Of a DNA stretch of 64,000 nt, positions 34,749 to 41,479 are shown piece after piece; within the stretch, counting starts at the first letter, position 1; each line of letters opens with the position of its first letter. Source of the DNA: Candidatus Latescibacterota bacterium (GTDB taxonomy: Bacteria; Latescibacterota; UBA2968; GCA-2709665); contig OZ252100.1 in the NCBI GenBank assembly GCA_965248435.1, positions 1,408,001-1,472,000 of the forward strand, written 5' to 3'. A model generated the notes under the pieces. It saw only the letters and a program-made list of their open reading frames with translations, made no database searches and had not been told where the DNA came from. Position numbers and translations under genes: made by a program.

Positions 34749-35309
34749 CTATGATTTTGTTCTTTGCTGTTGGTATTCGTCTCGCAGGATTCCGTAAACG
34801 TGGTAATCACCGAAGGCATCCCACTTCTTGTAATGTTGCTTCAAACACCCCTCGTAGCCCATACCGATCTTCTCTAGGACTCGCCCAGAGGCCGGATTGG
34901 TGTCCATGTGCCTCGCGTGAATCTTGTTCAACCCGAGTTCGTCAAAACCGTAGTGCAAAACAGCCTTCGCAGCTTCTGTGCAGTATCCGCTTCCCCAGTA
35001 TTCCTTGCCGATCCAGTATCCCATCTCCCCTCTGTCATGTGGTCGGCTGATTACAAGCCCGATCGCGCCAATGAGCAATCCATCTAACTTGAGGGTTACT
35101 GCGAAGATCACTTCATTTCCGGAATCGAAGGCCTTCCTATGGGTTGAGATCCACTTCTCCGCGTCTCCCGCTTCGTATGGATGTGGGATGTTGAGAGTGG
35201 TGGCTGCGATCTCCCGATCGCCCGCGAGTTTGTGGACTCTCGGCGCATCTTTCTCCACAAATGGACGAAGGAGAAGTCTGTCGGTTTCTAGGTTAGGTTG
35301 CTCTGCCAT
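34749..35309 (-). CDS. RimJ/RimL-type GNAT acetyltransferase (cassette)
   Basis: LETDRLLLRP, IPHPY, EMGYWIGKEYWGSGYCTEA, NPASGRVLEKIG. Confidence 0.93.
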   Translation of the reverse strand: MAEQPNLETDRLLLRPFVEKDAPRVHKLAGDREIAATTLNIPHPYEAGDAEKWISTHRKAFDSGNEVIFAVTLKLDGLLIGAIGLVISRPHDRGEMGYWIGKEYWGSGYCTEAAKAVLHYGFDELGLNKIHARHMDTNPASGRVLEKIGMGYEGCLKQHYKKWDAFGDYHVYGILRDEYQQQRTKS

Positions 35310-35343
35310 TGGTGGTTACTGGATTCATTCCCCGGCCAATGCC

Positions 35344-35432
35344 GTATAACGTTCTCGCGGGCTGCGAACCTGCCGAAGGCAGGTTAGGTCCGAGGCCCGA
35401 AAGGGCCTGAGCCGCGCACGGTCGTGTTATGA
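35344..35432 (-). repeat. attC-like site (short form)
   Basis: gtataac..aacctgccgaaggcaggtt..ggcccgaaagggcc..gttatga; overlaps the stop codon of 35427-36257. Confidence 0.85.
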
Positions 35433-36257
35433 GCCGTGCCGCTCAATTACTGTGATGAGATCATACTCTTCGTGTAATCTGTATCCAAGCTTTAGAGCAA
35501 GACCGTCTGATCGTGGATTTTCGGTGGTTCCCCAATGAGGCTCCTTGTCACTCCTTATGCATTCTGACAGAAGGGCAGCTGAGGCGACAGTTGCAAGACC
35601 TAATTTCTGAAAGCCGTCATCTGTTCCCACTCCCACCTCAATCGAGGATTCACTCACTCCGAAGGAAGTGGCTTCCGCAACTCGTTCACCGTCCTTGAGA
35701 ATCCAAAAACTGATTCCGCCTCGTTCAAAGAATCGTCTCAGCCTGACAAAGGCCAGAACCTTTCTTTCCACATCGATCCCTCTTTCCCTTGCCATTTCCT
35801 CATCGAACCGACGGAGCTCAAATCCAGGCCGCAGCCGACCTCTGAGGTCCGAGAGATGGGTGAGGTCCAGGAACTTTGCAGAGTAAATCTTCCTTCTCCG
35901 TGTCAGGACTCTCTTTTCAATAGCCGAAAGTATAGCCGTGTTCCACTCCTCATTCTCTGGTGTCAAGAGTTCTCCGGTGAACTCGGTACTCCACTGGGGG
36001 TAAGAATTGGCAACAGAAATCCTCGAACAGATTTCCCCAAGACTCGTCAAAGATGGATCCCCGCCAATCAGAACGTCTGAACCCACCCTCAACTTAGCGA
36101 TCCGAGGATTCACAGCATCATCCACGGAAACCTCGACAAAGTCCTTAAATCCGTCGAAATAACCTTCGAAAGTTGCGTCAATATAGGGACGAAGCCTTCT
36201 GTGGCCATCGAACAGGCTGCTACATTGGAACCAGTCTTCAGGTTTCAGTTTGACCAC
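35427..36257 (-). CDS. GNAT family acetyltransferase (cassette)
   Basis: IEVGVGT...QKLGLAT, PHW...N.RS..LALKLGY. Confidence 0.85.
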   Translation of the reverse strand: MVKLKPEDWFQCSSLFDGHRRLRPYIDATFEGYFDGFKDFVEVSVDDAVNPRIAKLRVGSDVLIGGDPSLTSLGEICSRISVANSYPQWSTEFTGELLTPENEEWNTAILSAIEKRVLTRRRKIYSAKFLDLTHLSDLRGRLRPGFELRRFDEEMARERGIDVERKVLAFVRLRRFFERGGISFWILKDGERVAEATSFGVSESSIEVGVGTDDGFQKLGLATVASAALLSECIRSDKEPHWGTTENPRSDGLALKLGYRLHEEYDLITVIERHGS

Positions 36258-36329
36258 AACAAGCTCCTCTCTTCTGCGGCATGGCTCATTGTATCTTGAA
36301 AATATGATCTATTTGTAGATTATCTTGGT

Positions 36330-36505
36330 TCGAAGAAGACCTCTGGGGAGGCCGGATTGCGCATGAAGGCATTGACCTTGGACGTTAGATAGGCCCCCCG
36401 CCTTCTTGGCCCATGCCGAGGAGTATCCGAGACCCGAGAGTCTGTATCACAAGGCTGGTAGGCCAGGTGCAAGGTCGGGGGACCAGAGGTACAAATAAGG
36501 AGGGA
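36330..36505 (+). ncRNA. putative bridge/seek RNA of the IS110 element
   Basis: two stem-closed loops holding segments that match the target (attgcgcat, acgtta) and the donor junction (gagtatc, ggtacaa); exact ends unknown. Confidence 0.68.
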
Positions 36506-36511
36506 GAGATC

Positions 36512-37504
36512 ATGAAGCAAGAGAATCTGTTGGGGGTAGATGTCTCAGCCCGGGAGCTGGTGGTCGCGATCCGTCGCTCAGGGAAAGCGTATCCACTGGC
36601 AAGATTTCCCAACACAGGCGAAGGGCACCGTCGATTGATCAAGTGGGCGACAAAGCGGGGAAAGCCGGCTCGAGTGGGAGTCGAGGCCACAGGCATCTAT
36701 AGTTTTGAGGTGGCGTTGGCGTTGTATCGGCATCCGAAGACTCAGGTGATGGTAATCAACCCCAGAGCGCTGAGGAATTTCTCTCAGGCTTTGATGAAAC
36801 GGGGGAAAACCGACCCGATCGATGCGGAAGTGGCATTGGAGTATGTGCAGCGGATGCCCTTCCAGACGTGGCAGGCACCCCGTGATGAAGTACTTGACCT
36901 GCAGGCGATTACACGCCGGATCGCGCAGATCAAAGTCGAGATCAACCGGGAAGGAAACCGGCTTCACGCTTCCACGCAACGCCCATCGGTCGCGTCTGCG
37001 GTCGCCTTGGACATCGAAGAGCATGTTGAACATCTCAAAGCGCGTGTGCAGCAGCTGAAAGCGCGGGCTCTGGAGCTCATTGAGGGGGAAGCCACTCTGC
37101 GCGAGAAGTTCGCGCGATTGACTTCCGTTCACGGGATCGCAGCAACCAGCGCGATGGGCATTCTGGCAGAGATTTCGATGTTGCCTGCCGACATGAAGCC
37201 TGCCCAATGGGTGGCCTACGCAGGCCTGGATCCACGACCCCACGAATCGGGAGACACGATTCAGAAGCGCCGAGTGATCTCCAAAGCGGGGAATAAGTAC
37301 TTACGAACCGCCTTATATATGCCAGCGCTGGTGGCCATTCAACAGCAGCCCAATGTGAAGGCGTTCTACGAAAAACTCATCAGTCGAGGCAAGAAGCCCA
37401 TGCAGGGGGTCATCGCGGTGATGCGAAAGCTGCTTCACTCCATCTGGGGTATTCTCCAACACAACCAGGACTTCGACGGAGAAAAGTTCTACAAAATGGC
37501 TTGA
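36512..37504 (+). CDS. IS110 family DEDD transposase/recombinase
   Basis: GVDVS, VEATG, KTDPIDA, HGI, AYAGLDP..HESG, SKAGNKYLR. Confidence 0.96.
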   Translation: MKQENLLGVDVSARELVVAIRRSGKAYPLARFPNTGEGHRRLIKWATKRGKPARVGVEATGIYSFEVALALYRHPKTQVMVINPRALRNFSQALMKRGKTDPIDAEVALEYVQRMPFQTWQAPRDEVLDLQAITRRIAQIKVEINREGNRLHASTQRPSVASAVALDIEEHVEHLKARVQQLKARALELIEGEATLREKFARLTSVHGIAATSAMGILAEISMLPADMKPAQWVAYAGLDPRPHESGDTIQKRRVISKAGNKYLRTALYMPALVAIQQQPNVKAFYEKLISRGKKPMQGVIAVMRKLLHSIWGILQHNQDFDGEKFYKMA

Positions 37505-37521
37505 CCACCAAGAGAGTATCT

Positions 37522-37616
37522 AACGTTCCCGCGGGCTGCGAACCTGCCCAAGCGCAGCGAAGGCAGGTTAGGTCGGAGGCCCGAAAGGGCCGGAGCCGCA
37601 GCCCGACGTGTTAAGT
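37522..37616 (-). repeat. attC-like site (short form), core interrupted by IS110
   Basis: aacgttccc gcgggctgcg aacctgcc..ggcaggtt..ggcccgaaagggcc..cgcagccc..gttaagt. Confidence 0.85.
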
Positions 37617-37986
37617 GTCCGTGCCGGTGCCCGTATCGAGATACGCTCCAACATCGCGGTCAGACGGATGTCCAGCGTCCGCAGGTCCAGCCCTCCTACT
37701 GACCGATTTGACTCCCTGCAGTACGTGTGTTTCCTTCTCCGACAAGGGCACTATATTAGCGATGGCTATAGCACGACATTGTAGGAGAGACCCGAGCAGT
37801 TCGAGATCGATGACGATATGATGTCCAATCTCGGGCCTGACGGGACATCAATGCTTTGGATCGACCAAAGAGAGATATGTCGACACGAATCCATAGAACC
37901 GAGTGCCCAAGCCGGAAGCTACTTTACCAGCCATCCAGGCGCAAGAAATGGGCCTTGTAGTTCCTACACGTAGAGGAGACCAGAAG

Positions 37987-39033
37987 ATGGACGACGCGAT
38001 GCGTGACACGTTCGCACGACAAGGCTATGTCGTGGTGCCCGACGTTCTCAATCAACAGCAGCTGGACGAGCTCAATGAAGTCTACGATCAGCAGGTCCTC
38101 AGGGGGGAGGAGACGCTGTCCGCCCGCACCGATAACCAGACAAGCTTCTCCGTCCACGGGCGCGACATGCACGAGACGACGGACCGGCACGGCAACACCT
38201 ACGTGGGGAGAAGGCTCTGGAGCAAGACCTACAGGGACCTGATCGACAACGAGACCATGCTGCCCATCGTCGAAGAGATTCTGGGCGACCCGGCGTGGGG
38301 CCATGCCCCGGCACACATGCCGGAAGAGCTCCGCCCGTTGTTCCGGCTGGATCATGACAATGTGCACTACAAGACTGGCCGGAAACCGACAGACGGACCG
38401 GACAAGGGCGGGAGGCTCCACGGCGGCCCGGACCACTGGCATATCACGTGTGTGTATGAACTCAAGACGGTGGGACCGGGTGACGGGGGCTTCGGGTGTG
38501 TCGTCGGCACCCACAAGCCGGCCAATGAGCAGAAACTGCTGGACATCGACGGCGACTGGCGGTCGAACTGGTGCGACACGGAGTGGACGTCGCAGCTGCC
38601 GAACTGGGATCAGGATGTGCCGGTGCATCGCGTCGAGGCCAAGGCCGGGGACTGCATTCTATTCACGGAGAAGCTCAAACACGGCACGATTCCGTGGTCG
38701 GGGAGCGGCGAGCGGCGCACGCTCTTCTACAAGTACGTTCCTTTCGGCATGCACCACGGCGACGCCGCGTACGACACGAATGATCCCGAACTCACCGAGC
38801 GGCAGAAACGCATCCTGGAGTTCTCGCCGTGCTGGTTCAACGAGCCGAGGGAGGACAAAGACTACGCCGCGAACCCGGCGCTCACGGAGCTCCATCCGCT
38901 GGCGCGTGTGGAGAGCGACCCGAGCGTGTTGCTGCCGGGCATGTCGCCGCCGCGCATCCGACTGACGGATGAGACCAGGGCGAGGCTGCTGAGCGCCGGT
39001 GGAGTTGGAGCGAGTGCACACGCGAAGTTGTAG
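37987..39033 (+). CDS. PhyH family dioxygenase, inverted within its cassette
   Basis: RBS aggag; FARQGYVVVPDVL, LHGG, GGFGCVVGTHK, AGDCILFTEKLKHGT, RRTLFYKY. Confidence 0.88.
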   Translation: MDDAMRDTFARQGYVVVPDVLNQQQLDELNEVYDQQVLRGEETLSARTDNQTSFSVHGRDMHETTDRHGNTYVGRRLWSKTYRDLIDNETMLPIVEEILGDPAWGHAPAHMPEELRPLFRLDHDNVHYKTGRKPTDGPDKGGRLHGGPDHWHITCVYELKTVGPGDGGFGCVVGTHKPANEQKLLDIDGDWRSNWCDTEWTSQLPNWDQDVPVHRVEAKAGDCILFTEKLKHGTIPWSGSGERRTLFYKYVPFGMHHGDAAYDTNDPELTERQKRILEFSPCWFNEPREDKDYAANPALTELHPLARVESDPSVLLPGMSPPRIRLTDETRARLLSAGGVGASAHAKL

Positions 39034-39430: not shown

Positions 39431-40615
39431 TCAAGCTACGGCAACATGTGCCGGAGGCGCTCGCAGAGGCGCGAGGGTTCCGACTGTGAGCATAGGGCCT
39501 CCGCACTGCGCACAGACCTGAAGATCGATGCCTGTTACCCGGAGCAGAAGGTCCTGCCAGGTCGCCTTTGTGGCTGCGGAAGCCGTCGTGCATACAGTGC
39601 CCAGGAGCCTACGGCATCGTGCGAGCTTTTTCCGGCGACCCCGATTGCTGAGCAGTCCGTAGTGCCGGATCTTCACGAAGCCATCCGGCAGGATGTGAAG
39701 CAGGAACCGCCGGATGAACTCGTAGGCATCGACGGTCATCAGCTTCCGTCGGTTGCCGTCCTGGCGGTCCCGGTAGTGGAATGAGACCCGGTCGCCCTCA
39801 CAGGCGACCAGCCGGTGGTTGGAGATGGCGATCCGGTGTGTGTATCGTCCCAGATAGGCCACGACGCGTTCTGGATCCGCAAAAGTCGGCTTGACGTAAA
39901 CGGTCCATTCTCTCTGGTAAAGACCCCGAAGCAGATCGAAGAACGCATCTTCCAGTGGAGCACTCAATCCCGGGAACGCCAGAAGGCCTTCCTGGTGCGC
40001 GTCCTTCAGGAACGCAAGGAACTTCCCCCGGAACAGTCGGGACAGAACTTTTACGGGTAGAAAGAAGCCCCGTCGCGCCGCCTTCCATTCCTGACCGTCG
40101 TGGGTCAGCCCACCTCCAGTTACGATACAGTGCAGATGCGGGTGGTCGATGAGTGTCTGAGACCACGTATGAAGCACGGCGGTAAAGCCGATCTGCGCTC
40201 CAAGATACTTCCGTTCCCGCGCCAGCTCCAGAAGACTCTGCGATGCGGCTTTAAACACCAGGTTGTAGATCAGCTTCTGGTTCCGCAGAGCAAGCGGCCG
40301 CAGGGGCTCGGGCAACGTGAAGACGACGTGGAAGTATGGGATCGGAAGGAGATCCTCTTTACGAGCGTCGATCCATCGTTCGGTCGTCAGGAACTGGCAC
40401 TTCGTACAGTGCCGGTTGCGGCAGGAGTTGTAGGCGATCCGCTTCGCTCCGCAGTGTCCGCACACTTCCACGTGTCCGCCCAGCGCAGCTGTTCGGCAGA
40501 TCTGGATAGCCCGCATGGCCCGCTTCTGCCGAAGCGGCATGTGATCACCGTATTCTACTTGATAGCTGTCTCCGTGGGCCCGGAAGATGTCGGCGACTTC
40601 GAGAGCCTGTGACAT
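39431..40615 (-). CDS. IS91-family Y2 (HUH rolling-circle) transposase with Zn-binding domain
   Basis: C..C..YNSCRNRHC.KC, FHVVFTLP, HPHLH (HUH), YLGRY, IRHYG. Confidence 0.95.
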   Translation of the reverse strand: MSQALEVADIFRAHGDSYQVEYGDHMPLRQKRAMRAIQICRTAALGGHVEVCGHCGAKRIAYNSCRNRHCTKCQFLTTERWIDARKEDLLPIPYFHVVFTLPEPLRPLALRNQKLIYNLVFKAASQSLLELARERKYLGAQIGFTAVLHTWSQTLIDHPHLHCIVTGGGLTHDGQEWKAARRGFFLPVKVLSRLFRGKFLAFLKDAHQEGLLAFPGLSAPLEDAFFDLLRGLYQREWTVYVKPTFADPERVVAYLGRYTHRIAISNHRLVACEGDRVSFHYRDRQDGNRRKLMTVDAYEFIRRFLLHILPDGFVKIRHYGLLSNRGRRKKLARCRRLLGTVCTTASAATKATWQDLLLRVTGIDLQVCAQCGGPMLTVGTLAPLRAPPAHVAVA

Positions 40616-40627
40616 GGCCGACCTCCG

Positions 40628-41479
40628 CTACGAAGTCGGCTTGTCTTCATCTCCCAAAAGGTCCAGGGGGCTTCTGATACGCGTGAGGTCCCGGGTGGTG
40701 ACGTGGAGGTAGACGGTGGTGGTTCGAATGCTCGTGTGACCCAACAGTTGTTGGACGAAGCGGATGTCGACTCCGTTGTCCAGAAGATGCGTGGCGAAGC
40801 TGTGACGCAGCGAGTGGACACTCGCACGCTTTTGTATCTCCGCGCGTCGGCAGGCCTGCTCGAAGACTTTCTGGACAGTGCGAGCATGGAGCGGCGCGTC
40901 CGGTCTTTCGCCGGGGAACAGCCAATCGCGAGACGGGTTGGTGCGCCAATAGACGCGGAGTGCCTTTAAGGCCTCCTGGGCCAGAAGCGTCTCTCGCTCT
41001 TTTTGGCCTTTGCCCCGCACACGGATCAGCATCCGGTCACTGTCGATATCGGAAAGCTTTAGCCCGATGGCCTCACTCAGTCTGAGCCCGCCAGAGTAAA
41101 TGACCATCAGCAGCGTACGGTGTTTCAGGTTGTTGGTCCTGTCGATCAGCCGCTGCACTTCCTCTGTGGAGAGTACCACCGGGAGCTTCTTTGCCTTCTT
41201 CGCACGAGGGATGCCCCACTCGACCCAGTCACGCTTCAACGTCGTTTGGAACAGAAACTTCAGCCCGCTGTATACCTGGTTGACATAGCTTTGGGACAGC
41301 TTCCGCTCAGTGATCAGATAGTGCAGATAGGCGCGGATCTCTTCTTCGCTGAGCCGGTCGGGCGGTGTCTTGCAGTAACGACACAGCCCGGCCACTCCGC
41401 TCACGTACGCCTTCTGCGTATCCGGATCTAAACCTTTCAACTGCATGTCCCGGATCATTCGCTTCCGATGCTTGGTCAT
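40628..41479 (-). CDS. tyrosine recombinase (integron-integrase-like, without the IntI-specific insertion)
   Basis: LPVVLS.EEV, GLRLSE, GKG.KER, HSLRHSFATHLL, LLGH...TTVY; short YW...WLFP span. Confidence 0.95.
   Translation of the reverse strand: MTKHRKRMIRDMQLKGLDPDTQKAYVSGVAGLCRYCKTPPDRLSEEEIRAYLHYLITERKLSQSYVNQVYSGLKFLFQTTLKRDWVEWGIPRAKKAKKLPVVLSTEEVQRLIDRTNNLKHRTLLMVIYSGGLRLSEAIGLKLSDIDSDRMLIRVRGKGQKERETLLAQEALKALRVYWRTNPSRDWLFPGERPDAPLHARTVQKVFEQACRRAEIQKRASVHSLRHSFATHLLDNGVDIRFVQQLLGHTSIRTTTVYLHVTTRDLTRIRSPLDLLGDEDKPTS

Follow-up and report, generated by a model that had tools for sequence, protein, structure and literature searches.

An IS110-group insertion sequence whose upstream bridge RNA is probably written to the consensus of attC-like repeats

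Accounts of bridge and seek RNAs appeared in 2024 (Durrant et al. 2024, PMC11208160; Hiraizumi et al. 2024, PMC11208158; Siddiquee et al. 2024, PMC11187229), and in the portions of these papers that are drawn on here natural targeting of attC sites is documented for the IS1111 branch, in which the RNA lies downstream of the gene (PMC11187229). The window analysed here, a stretch of 64,000 nucleotides from a Candidatus Latescibacterota bacterium (assembly GCA_965248435.1, contig OZ252100.1), contains an element with its long non-coding end upstream, inserted in what resembles the end of an integron cassette site, and this raises the question whether an IS110-type element can be directed to such sites by an RNA of its own. 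In our literature search no description of IS110-type attC targeting was found; the supplementary tables of the 2024 papers lay outside this search and may list such targets. The explanation that we regard as very probable for the whole locus is an IS110-group insertion sequence, active or recently active, with a left-end bridge RNA written to the consensus of attC-like sites. The features on which this reading is built are collected in Table 1.

Table 1 Features of the element, its RNA and its target (all on the forward strand; positions are those of the window)
Feature	Position	Strand	Basis or remark
Left target half atggctcat	36281..36289	+	Flank of copy 1; identical to LTG at 7/9
IS110-group insertion sequence, 1232 bp	36290..37521	+	Starts TGTATCTTG.., ends ..AAGAGAGTATCT; one CT core counted at right end
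TATCTT, possible -10 of circle-junction promoter	36292..36297	+	Read from sequence; candidate
Promoter-like site TTGAAA-16 nt-GATTAT, inside left end	36296..36323	+	Consensus scan, pattern match only
Bridge RNA (~150 nt)	36340..36493	+	Covariance-model match, 146.9 bits, E = 2.8e-39
Target-loop closing stem, 5' arm	36345..36353	+	Pairs with 36392-36399; 97.6% of cells paired, 18 RNAs
Left target guide (LTG) AUUGCGCAU	36356..36364	+	Same sense as left-target top strand; covaries with left flank
Hairpin inside target loop, AAGG/CCTT	36366..36379	+	100% of cells paired; 2 compensatory pairs
Right target guide (RTG) ACGUUAG	36382..36388	+	Reverse complement of CT+AACGT; covaries with right flank
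Target-loop handshake dinucleotide AU	36389..36390	+	Complementary to AT preceding CT core in right end
Donor-loop closing stem, 5' arm CTTGGCC	36405..36411	+	Pairs with GGCCAGG 36461-36467; found by RNAalifold
Left donor guide (LDG) GAGUAUCC	36421..36428	+	Same sense as right end GAGTATCT
Hairpin inside donor loop, AGAC/GUCU	36430..36443	+	100% of cells paired; one compensatory pair in 7/18 rows
Right donor guide (RDG) ACAAG	36449..36453	+	Reverse complement of CT+TGT (core + left-end start)
Donor-loop handshake dinucleotide GC	36454..36455	+	Complementary to GC before core in preferred target
Shine-Dalgarno AAGGAGG of recombinase gene	36497..36503	+	8 nt before ATG at 36512
Recombinase gene, 330 aa, DEDD/Tnp	36512..37504	+	Pfam, NCBIfam, homologue alignment
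Rest of attC-like site: AACGTTCCCG, CGGGCTGCG, central part, CGCAGCCCG, ACGTGTTAAG	37522..37615	+	Imperfect hairpin, z = -3.02

The boundaries of the element were placed where the similarity between its copies in the genome ends. A copy search of the whole genome gave three full copies (99-100% identity) and one remnant (94%), the latter (L004) being characterised by its left flank and RNA. All three full copies have the same orientation, with the right end against AACGTT (..NT^AACGTT, the caret marking the joint), and each occupies a different attC-like site. The junctions in the window read ..atggctcat^TGTATC.. and ..GAGAGTATCT^aacgtt, as given in the preliminary description, which had also proposed that the target is a conserved cassette-site end and that the insertion sites of other copies should be mapped; this mapping bore the proposal out, with (N)T^AACGT of the attC-like repeat family used by three of three full copies.

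The assignment to the IS110 family made in that description agrees with the domain content of the protein, in which PF01548 (DEDD_Tnp_IS110) covers residues 7-153 (9.1e-23) and PF02371 (Transposase_20) residues 202-287 (1.6e-19), and with a score of 201.6 bits against NCBIfam NF033542, 'IS110 family RNA-guided transposase' (cut-off 140). The gene start at 36512 is indicated by the initial residues MKQENLLG, which the homologues share. Residues D10, E58, D101, D104, S246 and G247 are invariant across 14 homologues; by analogy with the catalytic residues D11, E60, D102, D105 and S241 of IS621 (PMC11208158), D10, E58, D101, D104 and S246-G247 are assigned catalytic roles. As had been claimed, the non-coding sequence lies mostly upstream: 222 nt precede the gene, and 17 nt follow its stop codon; the same holds in 10 aligned homologues. 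By eye, a subterminal inverted repeat of about 5 bp can be recognised, CAAGA (37509-13) with TCTTG (36294-98), flanking the end sequences that the guides would bind. The closest protein relatives are environmental and at most 70% identical. A single-protein search of the genome contigs for related loci yielded one weak partial match.

Insertion in fixed orientation at one end of attC-type sites, with an RNA encoded by the element, is what has been described for the IS1111-attC group (ISKpn4, ISPst6 and relatives; PMC11187229), and membership of that group is one explanation to be weighed. It is scarcely credible here, as the long non-coding region, which in the IS1111-attC group lies downstream together with the RNA, is upstream of the gene. 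Furthermore, the guide matching the top strand comes first and its complement second, which is the IS110-type order and the reverse of that in the IS1111-attC group (PMC11187229), and the subterminal repeat is short as compared to the 7-17 bp of IS1111 elements (PMC11208160). All 2697 plasmid-borne relatives of the protein also have less than 60% identity; of the 25 listed, those from Klebsiella and Escherichia are at 23-31%. The stretch 36290-37521 is best classified as an IS110-group member of the upstream-RNA type. Within the IS110 branch it apparently falls in an environmental clade, and it has a known mechanism and an RNA guide that appears to be aimed at a cassette-site end. The IS1111-attC group itself is reportedly to be credited to Tetu and Holmes (2008) and Post and Hall (2009).

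The nature of the repeats is a separate matter. A strict attC pattern, adopted because a loose regular expression admitted too much (312 sites), gave 45 sites; the repeat family counts at least 45 members, arranged in arrays, with nine clusters of 3-13 sites. The arrays have one orientation, a spacing of 0.6-2 kb and one open reading frame per interval. The sites fold with z = -2.6 to -3.5, as an imperfect hairpin with AAC and GTT as its outer inverted boxes. Of 35 intervals, 30 have their cassette frame on the strand opposite to the AACGTT reading, with the repeat 3' of the gene, so that the element would sit in the R'-type box GTT^A(N), two nucleotides from the canonical G^TT exchange point. 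It is conceivable that the RNA guidance is real, but that the repeats are some other structured intergenic family and that 'cassette crossover site' is a misnomer, since no integron integrase (intI) was found in this 97.5%-complete genome (the best TIGR02249 match has 104 bits, with a cut-off of 265) and since the outer boxes are, by eye, spaced asymmetrically from the inner arms (6 nt on one side, 2 nt on the other). Canonical attC sites are more symmetric in this spacing. We give this alternative a small but real chance, against which stand the array organisation, the position of the repeats behind their genes, the shape of the repeat ends, and a 92-aa IntI-like C-terminal fragment that adjoins one array. 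Moreover, arrays of attC sites without an integrase are an established class. From the repeat shape and the cassette-like arrays we infer that the repeats are of integron origin, so that of the term 'crossover site' used in the preliminary description the attC-like end can be kept, while the exact crossover, offset from G^TT and in a genome in which no intI was found, is placed there by deduction.

Evidence for an RNA in the left end had to come from comparison, as the non-coding end, folded as a single sequence, does not stand out from its shuffles (z = -0.73, with 45 of 200 folding equally well), and an E-value scan of 35000-39000 against Rfam 15 gave only a weak snoRNA-like chance match. 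Homologous elements were found in nine other genomes, with 51-57% amino-acid identity, common termini (TGTA[TC]CTT.. and ..AAGAGAGTATCT) and different targets. A covariance model was built from 18 homologues; it superseded strict scaffold regular expressions, which had recovered the scaffold at 37 of 107 loci and in 14 of 83 rows, and found the RNA in 83 of 95 sources. Within the window it has one match, and genome-wide four, all within copies of the element. The structure of the 18 RNAs, which includes the first stem and hairpin of the preliminary description, has 94.4% of its cells paired, as compared to 86.5% in shuffles (none of 500 reached the observed value) and 36-64% in slid controls, and ten pairs display compensatory change. 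An outer helix, 36341-44 with 36477-80, encloses two internal loops with strands that match the target and the element ends. The scaffold is conserved among homologues while the guide positions vary with the flanks of each element; covariation was detected for the LTG, RTG, LDG and handshake bases.

All motif strings on which the preliminary description relied are present where it placed them: ggggaggcc (36345-53) and ggcccccc (36392-99), attgcgcat (36356-64), aagg (36366-69), cctt (36376-79) and acgtta (36382-87) for the target side, and ccttctt (36401-07), gagtatc (36421-27), ggtacaa (36488-94) and aaggagg (36497-503) for the donor side. The two sides fared differently. The target-binding loop as drawn there, with its stem, LTG, AAGG/CCTT hairpin and RTG, has comparative support across the family, even though the 5' arm of the stem is almost invariant and leaves little covariation to judge from. 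Guides follow the flanks of their own element, which is the covariation that had been proposed as a check. Over the seven non-core positions the LTG matches its own flank at 4.2 on average and the flanks of other elements at 2.08; over the five non-core positions of the RTG the values are 4.22 and 2.06. In neither case did any of 5000 permutations do as well, a count that overstates independence because the sequences are related, and for single-copy metagenome loci the element ends were set from the conserved termini instead of empty sites. Thirteen of 41 LTG/flank pairs agree at fewer than five of seven positions, some of them owing to a one-base register shift in column extraction. At the other extreme, the LTG of locus G120 is identical to its flank at 10 of 10 positions, and the right guides AGAAAAG, GCGTGAG and AAGTGAG face the flanks CTtttct, CTcacgc and CTcactt (G081, G151 and G152, respectively). 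In the model, the last two bases of the LTG (AU) bind the core. The target-loop handshake, a concept taken from the work on IS621 (PMC11208158), has A opposite T in 47 rows and G opposite C in one (G097).

A choice of site by the protein, or by folded attC DNA as with integron integrases, would make the RNA complementarity incidental; it would suit the fact that the targets are structured repeats and that equally well matched sites are empty. We consider this highly unlikely, as relatives with the same protein fold and element ends are found in unstructured and unrelated targets, such as the CT-rich heptamer repeats in G084 and G091, and their guides have changed to match.

For the donor side, the preliminary description had proposed a loop closed by ccttctt/aaggagg, with gagtatc as LDG and ggtacaa as RDG. 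Its LDG was retained: the guide equals the right end over six bases in 43 of 48 rows, in the variants AGTATC, AGAATC, AGCATC and AAAACC. These counts rest on a strict set of right ends, since a loose regular expression gave false matches. Of the five other rows, four are one transition off, which we read as a wobble pair, and one was unparsed but contains AGAATC. The closing stem and the RDG, however, had to be replaced. The proposed strings do occur and are able to pair, and ggtacaa complements ttgtatc if one G-T pair is allowed, but this exact loop is very improbable: aaggagg is the ribosome-binding site, and 36405-07 is used in the stem 36405-11/36461-67, of which the five modelled pairs (36406-10 with 36462-66) all changed on both sides among the 18 RNAs, the two end pairs having been added by eye from the sequence. 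An RTACAA-like motif occurs in the 3' tail of two of 83 family RNAs, whereas in 80 of 83 NCAAG directly succeeds the inner hairpin, and the base 3' of it covaries with the target; this placement mirrors the layout of the target loop and the arrangement of RDG plus handshake in IS621 (PMC11208158). The RDG is accordingly best taken as ACAAG at 36449-53, its position being kept in the family; the left end is conserved, and a covariation signal is therefore not to be expected. Among 53 dereplicated RNAs, 45 have a first donor-loop handshake base that pairs with target position 7, a number that none of 5000 permutations reached; where the row has a real flank, 26 of 29 do so.

With the target-binding loop established, the question becomes to what it is written. 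The LTG is ATTGCGNAT, which is also what 42 empty attC-like sites give as their consensus, the commonest core (AT) included, and it agrees with the flank consensus at every position that has one. Most of the empty sites share 5-7 of 9 positions with it, where the background has its mode at 2. The occupied sites match at 7, 8 and 6 of 9 positions, and the flank of the remnant at 5 of 9, which upholds the earlier claim that mismatches are tolerated on the variable left side. Ten empty sites match at 7 of 9 or better; since equally matched sites are empty and the occupied ones reach 6-8, the guide does not account for which sites are used. The suggestion of possibly non-identical cores was also borne out: in copies 1 and 2 the left junction has AT, the right one CT; in the window, AT (36288-89) forms the last two bases of the left target half and stands at the core position.

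Taken together, these observations suggest a mechanism based on a left-end bridge RNA of about 150 nt (36340-36493), with a target loop written to the attC-like consensus ATTGCGNAT^AACGT. Such a loop would direct one-orientation landing in the R'-type box of many non-identical cassettes, with targeting that would be exact at the conserved AACGT and would accept mismatches on the variable side. In the donor loop, closed by 36405-11/36461-67, the LDG GAGUAUC would read the right end and the RDG ACAAG the core and the first bases of the left end, and two-base handshake guides would follow the RTG and the RDG. The donor core is CT, with the LTG specifying AT, the commonest dinucleotide there in the sites; copies 1 and 2 have retained the target AT at the left junction and the donor CT at the right one, the products expected of top-strand exchange after the core. 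The recombination chemistry is assumed by homology with IS621.

Transcription of the RNA, its ends and its promoter can be proposed from sequence patterns. A consensus scan found two promoter-like sites, with 0.6 expected, of which the TTGAAA/GATTAT site would have its transcription start about 10 nt upstream of the RNA. A circle-junction promoter may also be formed, with TTGACC (37501-37506) as candidate -35, 17 nt from TATCTT across the joint of right end and left end; homologues have TTGAC about as far from their right ends, and IS621 offers a precedent with its -35 in the right end and -10 in the left end (PMC11208158).

A more ambitious joint reading, in which one RNA is tuned to the whole attC family, the core is deliberately split, and the recombinase is responsible for cassette travel and array shuffling, seems unlikely to us. 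If it were true, the LTG reading AT and the RTG and donor reading CT would enable one guide to address dozens of non-identical junctions. Insertion would rebuild a consensus R' box on the cassette strand (GTT plus AGAT from the right end), so that the element could travel as part of a cassette, and the recombinase could shuffle cassette arrays by recombining IS ends with attC sites in a genome without integrase.

Among known systems, IS621 is the closest in organisation, as far as the consulted parts of its descriptions go (Durrant et al. 2024, PMC11208160; Hiraizumi et al. 2024, PMC11208158). Both elements have a recombinase with DEDD and Tnp domains and a left-end RNA, a target loop before the donor loop, an LTG that reads the bottom strand and an RTG that reads the top strand, a 9-nt LTG, a CT donor core and a short RDG (core plus 3 nt). 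They also agree in having handshake bases directly 3' of RTG and RDG, and the candidate circle-junction promoter has its counterpart in the right-end -35 and left-end -10 of IS621 (PMC11208158). On the other hand, the RTG is 7 nt here and 4 nt in wild-type IS621, the outer helix encloses both loops, the LTG core is AU with AG in the RTG, and the natural target is a repeat-family consensus and not a unique or REP-type site. With the IS110-type ISEc21 and its seekRNA (Siddiquee et al. 2024, PMC11187229) the element shares the upstream non-coding region and a short RNA with matches to either target strand, placed in the same order; the target is a different one. Group IIC-attC introns (PMC3001079) are also a mobile class homing to attC, but they are unrelated retroelements with a different mechanism.

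The element offers a natural example of a guide written to a repeat consensus instead of a single site, and natural material on one-sided tolerance of target mismatches and on recombination between unlike cores (AT and CT). The AT/CT junctions, which match top-strand products, bear on the current strand-exchange and copy-out models, and reprogramming tests could start directly from the alignment of 83 members and the handshake covariation in it.

Within its clade the element is no rarity, as CTAAC is specified by 38 of 81 related RNAs. In an offset-tolerant scan, 8 of 15 loci with an AAC flank have an arm run of at least 6 nt beside a downstream GTT, against none of 23 others. An ungapped search for an inverted-repeat partner of the right flank had failed because the arms of attC-like sites have asymmetric loops. 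At least 8 of the 15 distinct AAC-flank loci, the one in this window included, thus sit in attC-like hairpins. With CTAAC in about half of the RNAs, attC sites appear to be a recurrent safe harbour, to which both the IS110 and the IS1111 branches have found their way. Among the sequencing-run contigs examined none had an empty site; X1 has a joint that 'goes back 1500'. Three other runs contain a natural variant, T36358G, inside the LTG, changing it to ATGGCGCAT; G is the second commonest base at the corresponding target position.

The IS110-group insertion sequence (IS) joins its left flank at ..gcggcatggctcat/TGTATCTTGAAAAT.. and its right flank at ..CCAAGAGAGTATCT/aacgttcccgcgggctgcgaacc.., and a single long open reading frame lies between the two junctions. 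The encoded recombinase of 330 amino acids starts at ATG 36512, with AAGGAGG upstream, carries the Pfam domains DEDD_Tnp_IS110 and Transposase_20, and scores 201.6 bits against NCBIfam NF033542 ('IS110 family RNA-guided transposase'; cut-off 140); its start residues are the same in homologues of equal length. Residues D10, E58, D101, D104 and S246-G247 are invariant columns across 14 recombinase sequences and would, by analogy, be the counterparts of the IS621 catalytic residues, with roles as given in PMC11208158. The non-coding ends measure 222 nt 5' and 17 nt 3' of the gene, a layout of the IS110 type, not the IS1111 type (PMC11208160, PMC11187229). The closest proteins are environmental (at most 70% identity); the best plasmid-borne relative reaches 46.9%, all 2697 matching records stay below 60%, and the plasmid-borne enterobacterial relatives among the matches listed show 23-31%.

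A search of the genome (5.67 Mb, 2 contigs) gave three full copies (99-100% identity) and one remnant; a fifth match, of 26 nt, was discarded as noise. Similarity between copies stops exactly at TGTATC.. on the left and ..GTATCT on the right. The flanks are atggctcAT and aacgttcccgcgggctgcgaacc for copy 1, in the window, actgcgcAT and aacgttcccgccacttgcgaacc for copy 2, and attgcatCT and aacgttctcggcacccacgaacc for copy 3. As these differ, the copies occupy three distinct members of a single repeat family, each entered in an identical orientation and at an identical position.

The window contains 6 occurrences of the motif TAACGTTC, versus 1.1 expected. Across the genome, sites with the layout (N)T/AACGTTCTCG, arm, CGAAC .. 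arm', CGTGTTA are organised in nine clusters of 3-13 co-oriented sites each (45 sites by the strict pattern) and fold into imperfect hairpins (z = -2.6 to -3.5); this shape and organisation suggest the label 'attC'. The longest reading frame is opposite in strand to the AACGTT reading in 30 of 35 inter-site intervals, so that on the gene strand the end hit by the IS is the 3' box ..AACGTT/A(N), which we take to be the R'-type GTTRRRY box. The IS joint lies 2 nt past the canonical G/TT exchange point. A search of the genome for an integron integrase found none (best match 104 bits, cut-off 265), only an IntI-like C-terminal fragment of 92 amino acids beside one array, and the arrays thus resemble attC clusters without integrase. 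The fragment (G000 C1:4954386-4954607, outside the window) aligns with the integron-integrase model in its C-terminal part alone (86.8 bits). It adjoins the attC-like cluster at 4947928-4950609 and is possibly what is left of an intI gene.

The RNA is not shown by one sequence alone (single-sequence fold of the non-coding end, z = -0.73), and Rfam gave nothing for the bridge RNA. Among 168 genomes of the same phylum, homologous elements were found in 11 other genomes (51-57% amino acid identity, several multi-copy), with ends defined in 9. These ends are the same, TGTA[TC]CTT.. and ..AAGAGAGTATCT (once ..AAGAGAAAACCT), and the flanks differ from one another. The scaffold of ten aligned non-coding ends is fixed, GGGGAGGCC-G-[9-10 nt]-GAAGGCATCGACCTTG-[7 nt]-AUAGGCCCCCC; its first variable block repeats the left-flank sequence (in genome G120, GAAATAGTCT versus gaaatagtct), and its second is complementary, read in reverse, to CT followed by the right flank (AGAAAAG versus CTtttct in G081, AGGTAAG versus CTtacct in G084, GCGTGAG versus CTcacgc in G151, AAGTGAG versus CTcactt in G152). 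To these were added the best 80 metagenome loci (44-69% identity) from a scan in which 529 of 600 candidate stretches encoded a relative. In a curated structure of 18 RNAs, 94.4% of cells were paired versus 86.5% in shuffles (reached in 0/500), with compensatory change at 10 pairs and slid controls at 36-64%. The covariance model built from it recovers the RNA from 83 of the 95 sources; in the genome it has four matches, all within IS copies.

Positions of features in the window
Feature	Position	Remark
Cassette-like neighbours	34749-35309, 35427-36257, 37987-39033	
attC-like site	35347-35440	
Candidate TATCTT	36292-97	left end; partner of TTGACC across circle junction
Second promoter-like site	36296-36323	left end; TTGAAA, 16 nt, GATTAT
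Candidate bridge RNA	36340-36493	single covariance-model match in window
LTG	36356-64	target loop
RTG	36382-88	target loop
Donor-loop closing stem	36405-11 with 36461-67	CTTGGCC with GGCCAGG
LDG	36421-28	donor loop
Hairpin AGAC/GUCU	36430-43	donor loop
ACAAG	36449-53	donor loop; nearly invariant; reverse complement of CT + TGT
Recombinase gene	36512-37504 (+)	
Candidate -35 TTGACC	37501-06	right end; would be 17 nt from TATCTT across circle junction
~2.5-kb element	39431-41479 (minus)	

Usable flanks among the 83 RNAs numbered 42 on the left and 46 on the right (41 each after dereplication). The target-loop guide LTG matched its own flank at 4.2 of 7 non-core positions versus 2.08 for the flanks of other elements, and RTG at 4.22 of 5 versus 2.06; none of 5000 permutations reached either value, in tests that are inflated by relatedness of the rows. 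Thirteen of 41 LTG-flank pairs fall below 5/7, some because a subgroup with ..CCTA before the hairpin has its guide displaced by one base. In the donor loop, six bases of LDG agree with the right end in 43 of 48 rows (AGTATC 33, AGAATC 5, AGCATC 4, AAAACC 1); four others differ by one transition, which we read as wobble pairs, and one was unparsed.

The donor loop mirrors the target loop in its order. Its closing stem, from RNAalifold and pair counts, has changes on both sides at all five modelled pairs. The preliminary description had closed this loop with ccttctt/aaggagg, which has to be abandoned because aaggagg is the ribosome-binding site; its RTACAA-type right donor guide in the 3' tail is found in 2 of 83 family RNAs, versus 80 of 83 for NCAAG. 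'Handshake guides' are described for IS621 (PMC11208158): the dinucleotides that follow RTG and RDG pair, once the strands have been exchanged, with position 7 or 6 of the other DNA. This arrangement holds for the present family too. Of 53 dereplicated RNAs, 45 pair the base that follows ACAAG with target position 7 (40 by Watson-Crick pairing; permutations 0/5000), as do 26 of the 29 rows for which a real flank is available. After RTG, A stands opposite T in 47 rows, and the G097 element, the sole one with C at that right-end place, has G opposite C.

The nine-base stretch preceding AACGT has, over 42 empty attC-like sites, the composition A(26) T(40) T(22) G(24) C(36) G(20) N A(16) T(35), giving the consensus ATTGCGNAT; LTG reads ATTGCGCAT. 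At most empty sites, LTG is identical in 5-7 of 9 positions, against a background mode of 2 before unrelated AACG; the occupied sites have 7, 8 and 6 of 9. Since ten empty sites have at least 7 of 9, guide match alone does not predict occupancy. An element about 98% identical, in contigs of three other runs, carries T36358G in LTG; at the corresponding target position, G ranks second in frequency. The remnant (L004, G000 C1:4835981-4836236; first ~257 nt, 94% identical) keeps an intact bridge-RNA match (129.5 bits) and has an altered LTG (..GCGCTT) and a left flank matching the guide poorly (5/9).

The core dinucleotide at empty sites is AT (15), GT (8), CT (8), TT (4) or another (7), and in relatives CT on both sides in all but a few. 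In this IS the donor core is CT, and RTG, with a terminal AG, also stands for CT, while LTG terminates in AU. The left junction of copies 1 and 2 carries AT, their right junction CT. In IS621, the two top strands are cut immediately past the core and then exchanged (PMC11208158). Under this model, one product would join left target and target core to the left end, and the other would join right end and donor core to the right target; the observed AT/CT junctions agree with this and may well be these products. PMC11208158 and PMC11208160 report AT, GT and TT cores as functional for IS621.

The bridge RNA might be expressed from candidate promoters, to judge from sequence motifs: the right-end TTGACC and left-end TATCTT have the circle-junction arrangement of IS621, and a second promoter-like site lies within the left end.

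This system shares its mechanism and anatomy with the bridge RNAs of the IS110 group. RNA-guided relatives in the IS1111-attC group target attC with an RNA downstream of the gene (PMC11187229); no description of attC targeting by the IS110 type was found in the literature searched, and supplementary tables may contain cases. CTAAC is specified by 38 of 81 family RNAs, ATAAC or TTAAC by 2. An attC-like inverted arm adjoins the downstream GTT at 8 of 15 distinct AAC-flank loci, the window's included, versus 0 of 23 other loci, and the G101 and G097 elements also lie in ..CT/aacgt.. hairpin sites. Related IS110 elements of G084 and G091 (L020, L021, L026, L028 and others; at least 13 copies per genome) lie inside tandem CT-rich heptamer repeats (..CTCCCGT.., ..CTCGCCT..), which their guides match, making the tract a multi-copy target.

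The tabulated attC-like site has a hybrid look, with a 5' arm of CGGGCTGCG type and a 3' arm (..GCGCACGG..) that would pair with the CCGTGCGC type of other sites; its halves seem to come from different subtypes. The cassette-like neighbours encode, on the minus strand, two GNAT acetyltransferases (one of them with PF12746) and, on the plus strand, a PhyH-family dioxygenase, the latter oriented opposite to most cassette reading frames. The ~2.5-kb element has six copies, the others near G000 C1 2071970, 3850047, 4651479, 4843434 and 5171594, and encodes an IS91-family transposase (NF033538, 452.7 bits) and a XerC/IntI-like tyrosine recombinase of 283 amino acids (recomb_XerA_Arch 219 bits, cut-off 220; TIGR02249 195.5, cut-off 265). 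All copies terminate ..CTTAATCGTTA/, and the sequence beyond is the reverse complement of the 'cassette-start' flank of the attC family (e.g. /tacggcattggcc), so that this element also adjoins the G/TTA cassette boundary. Its copies lie within or next to arrays holding IS110 copies.
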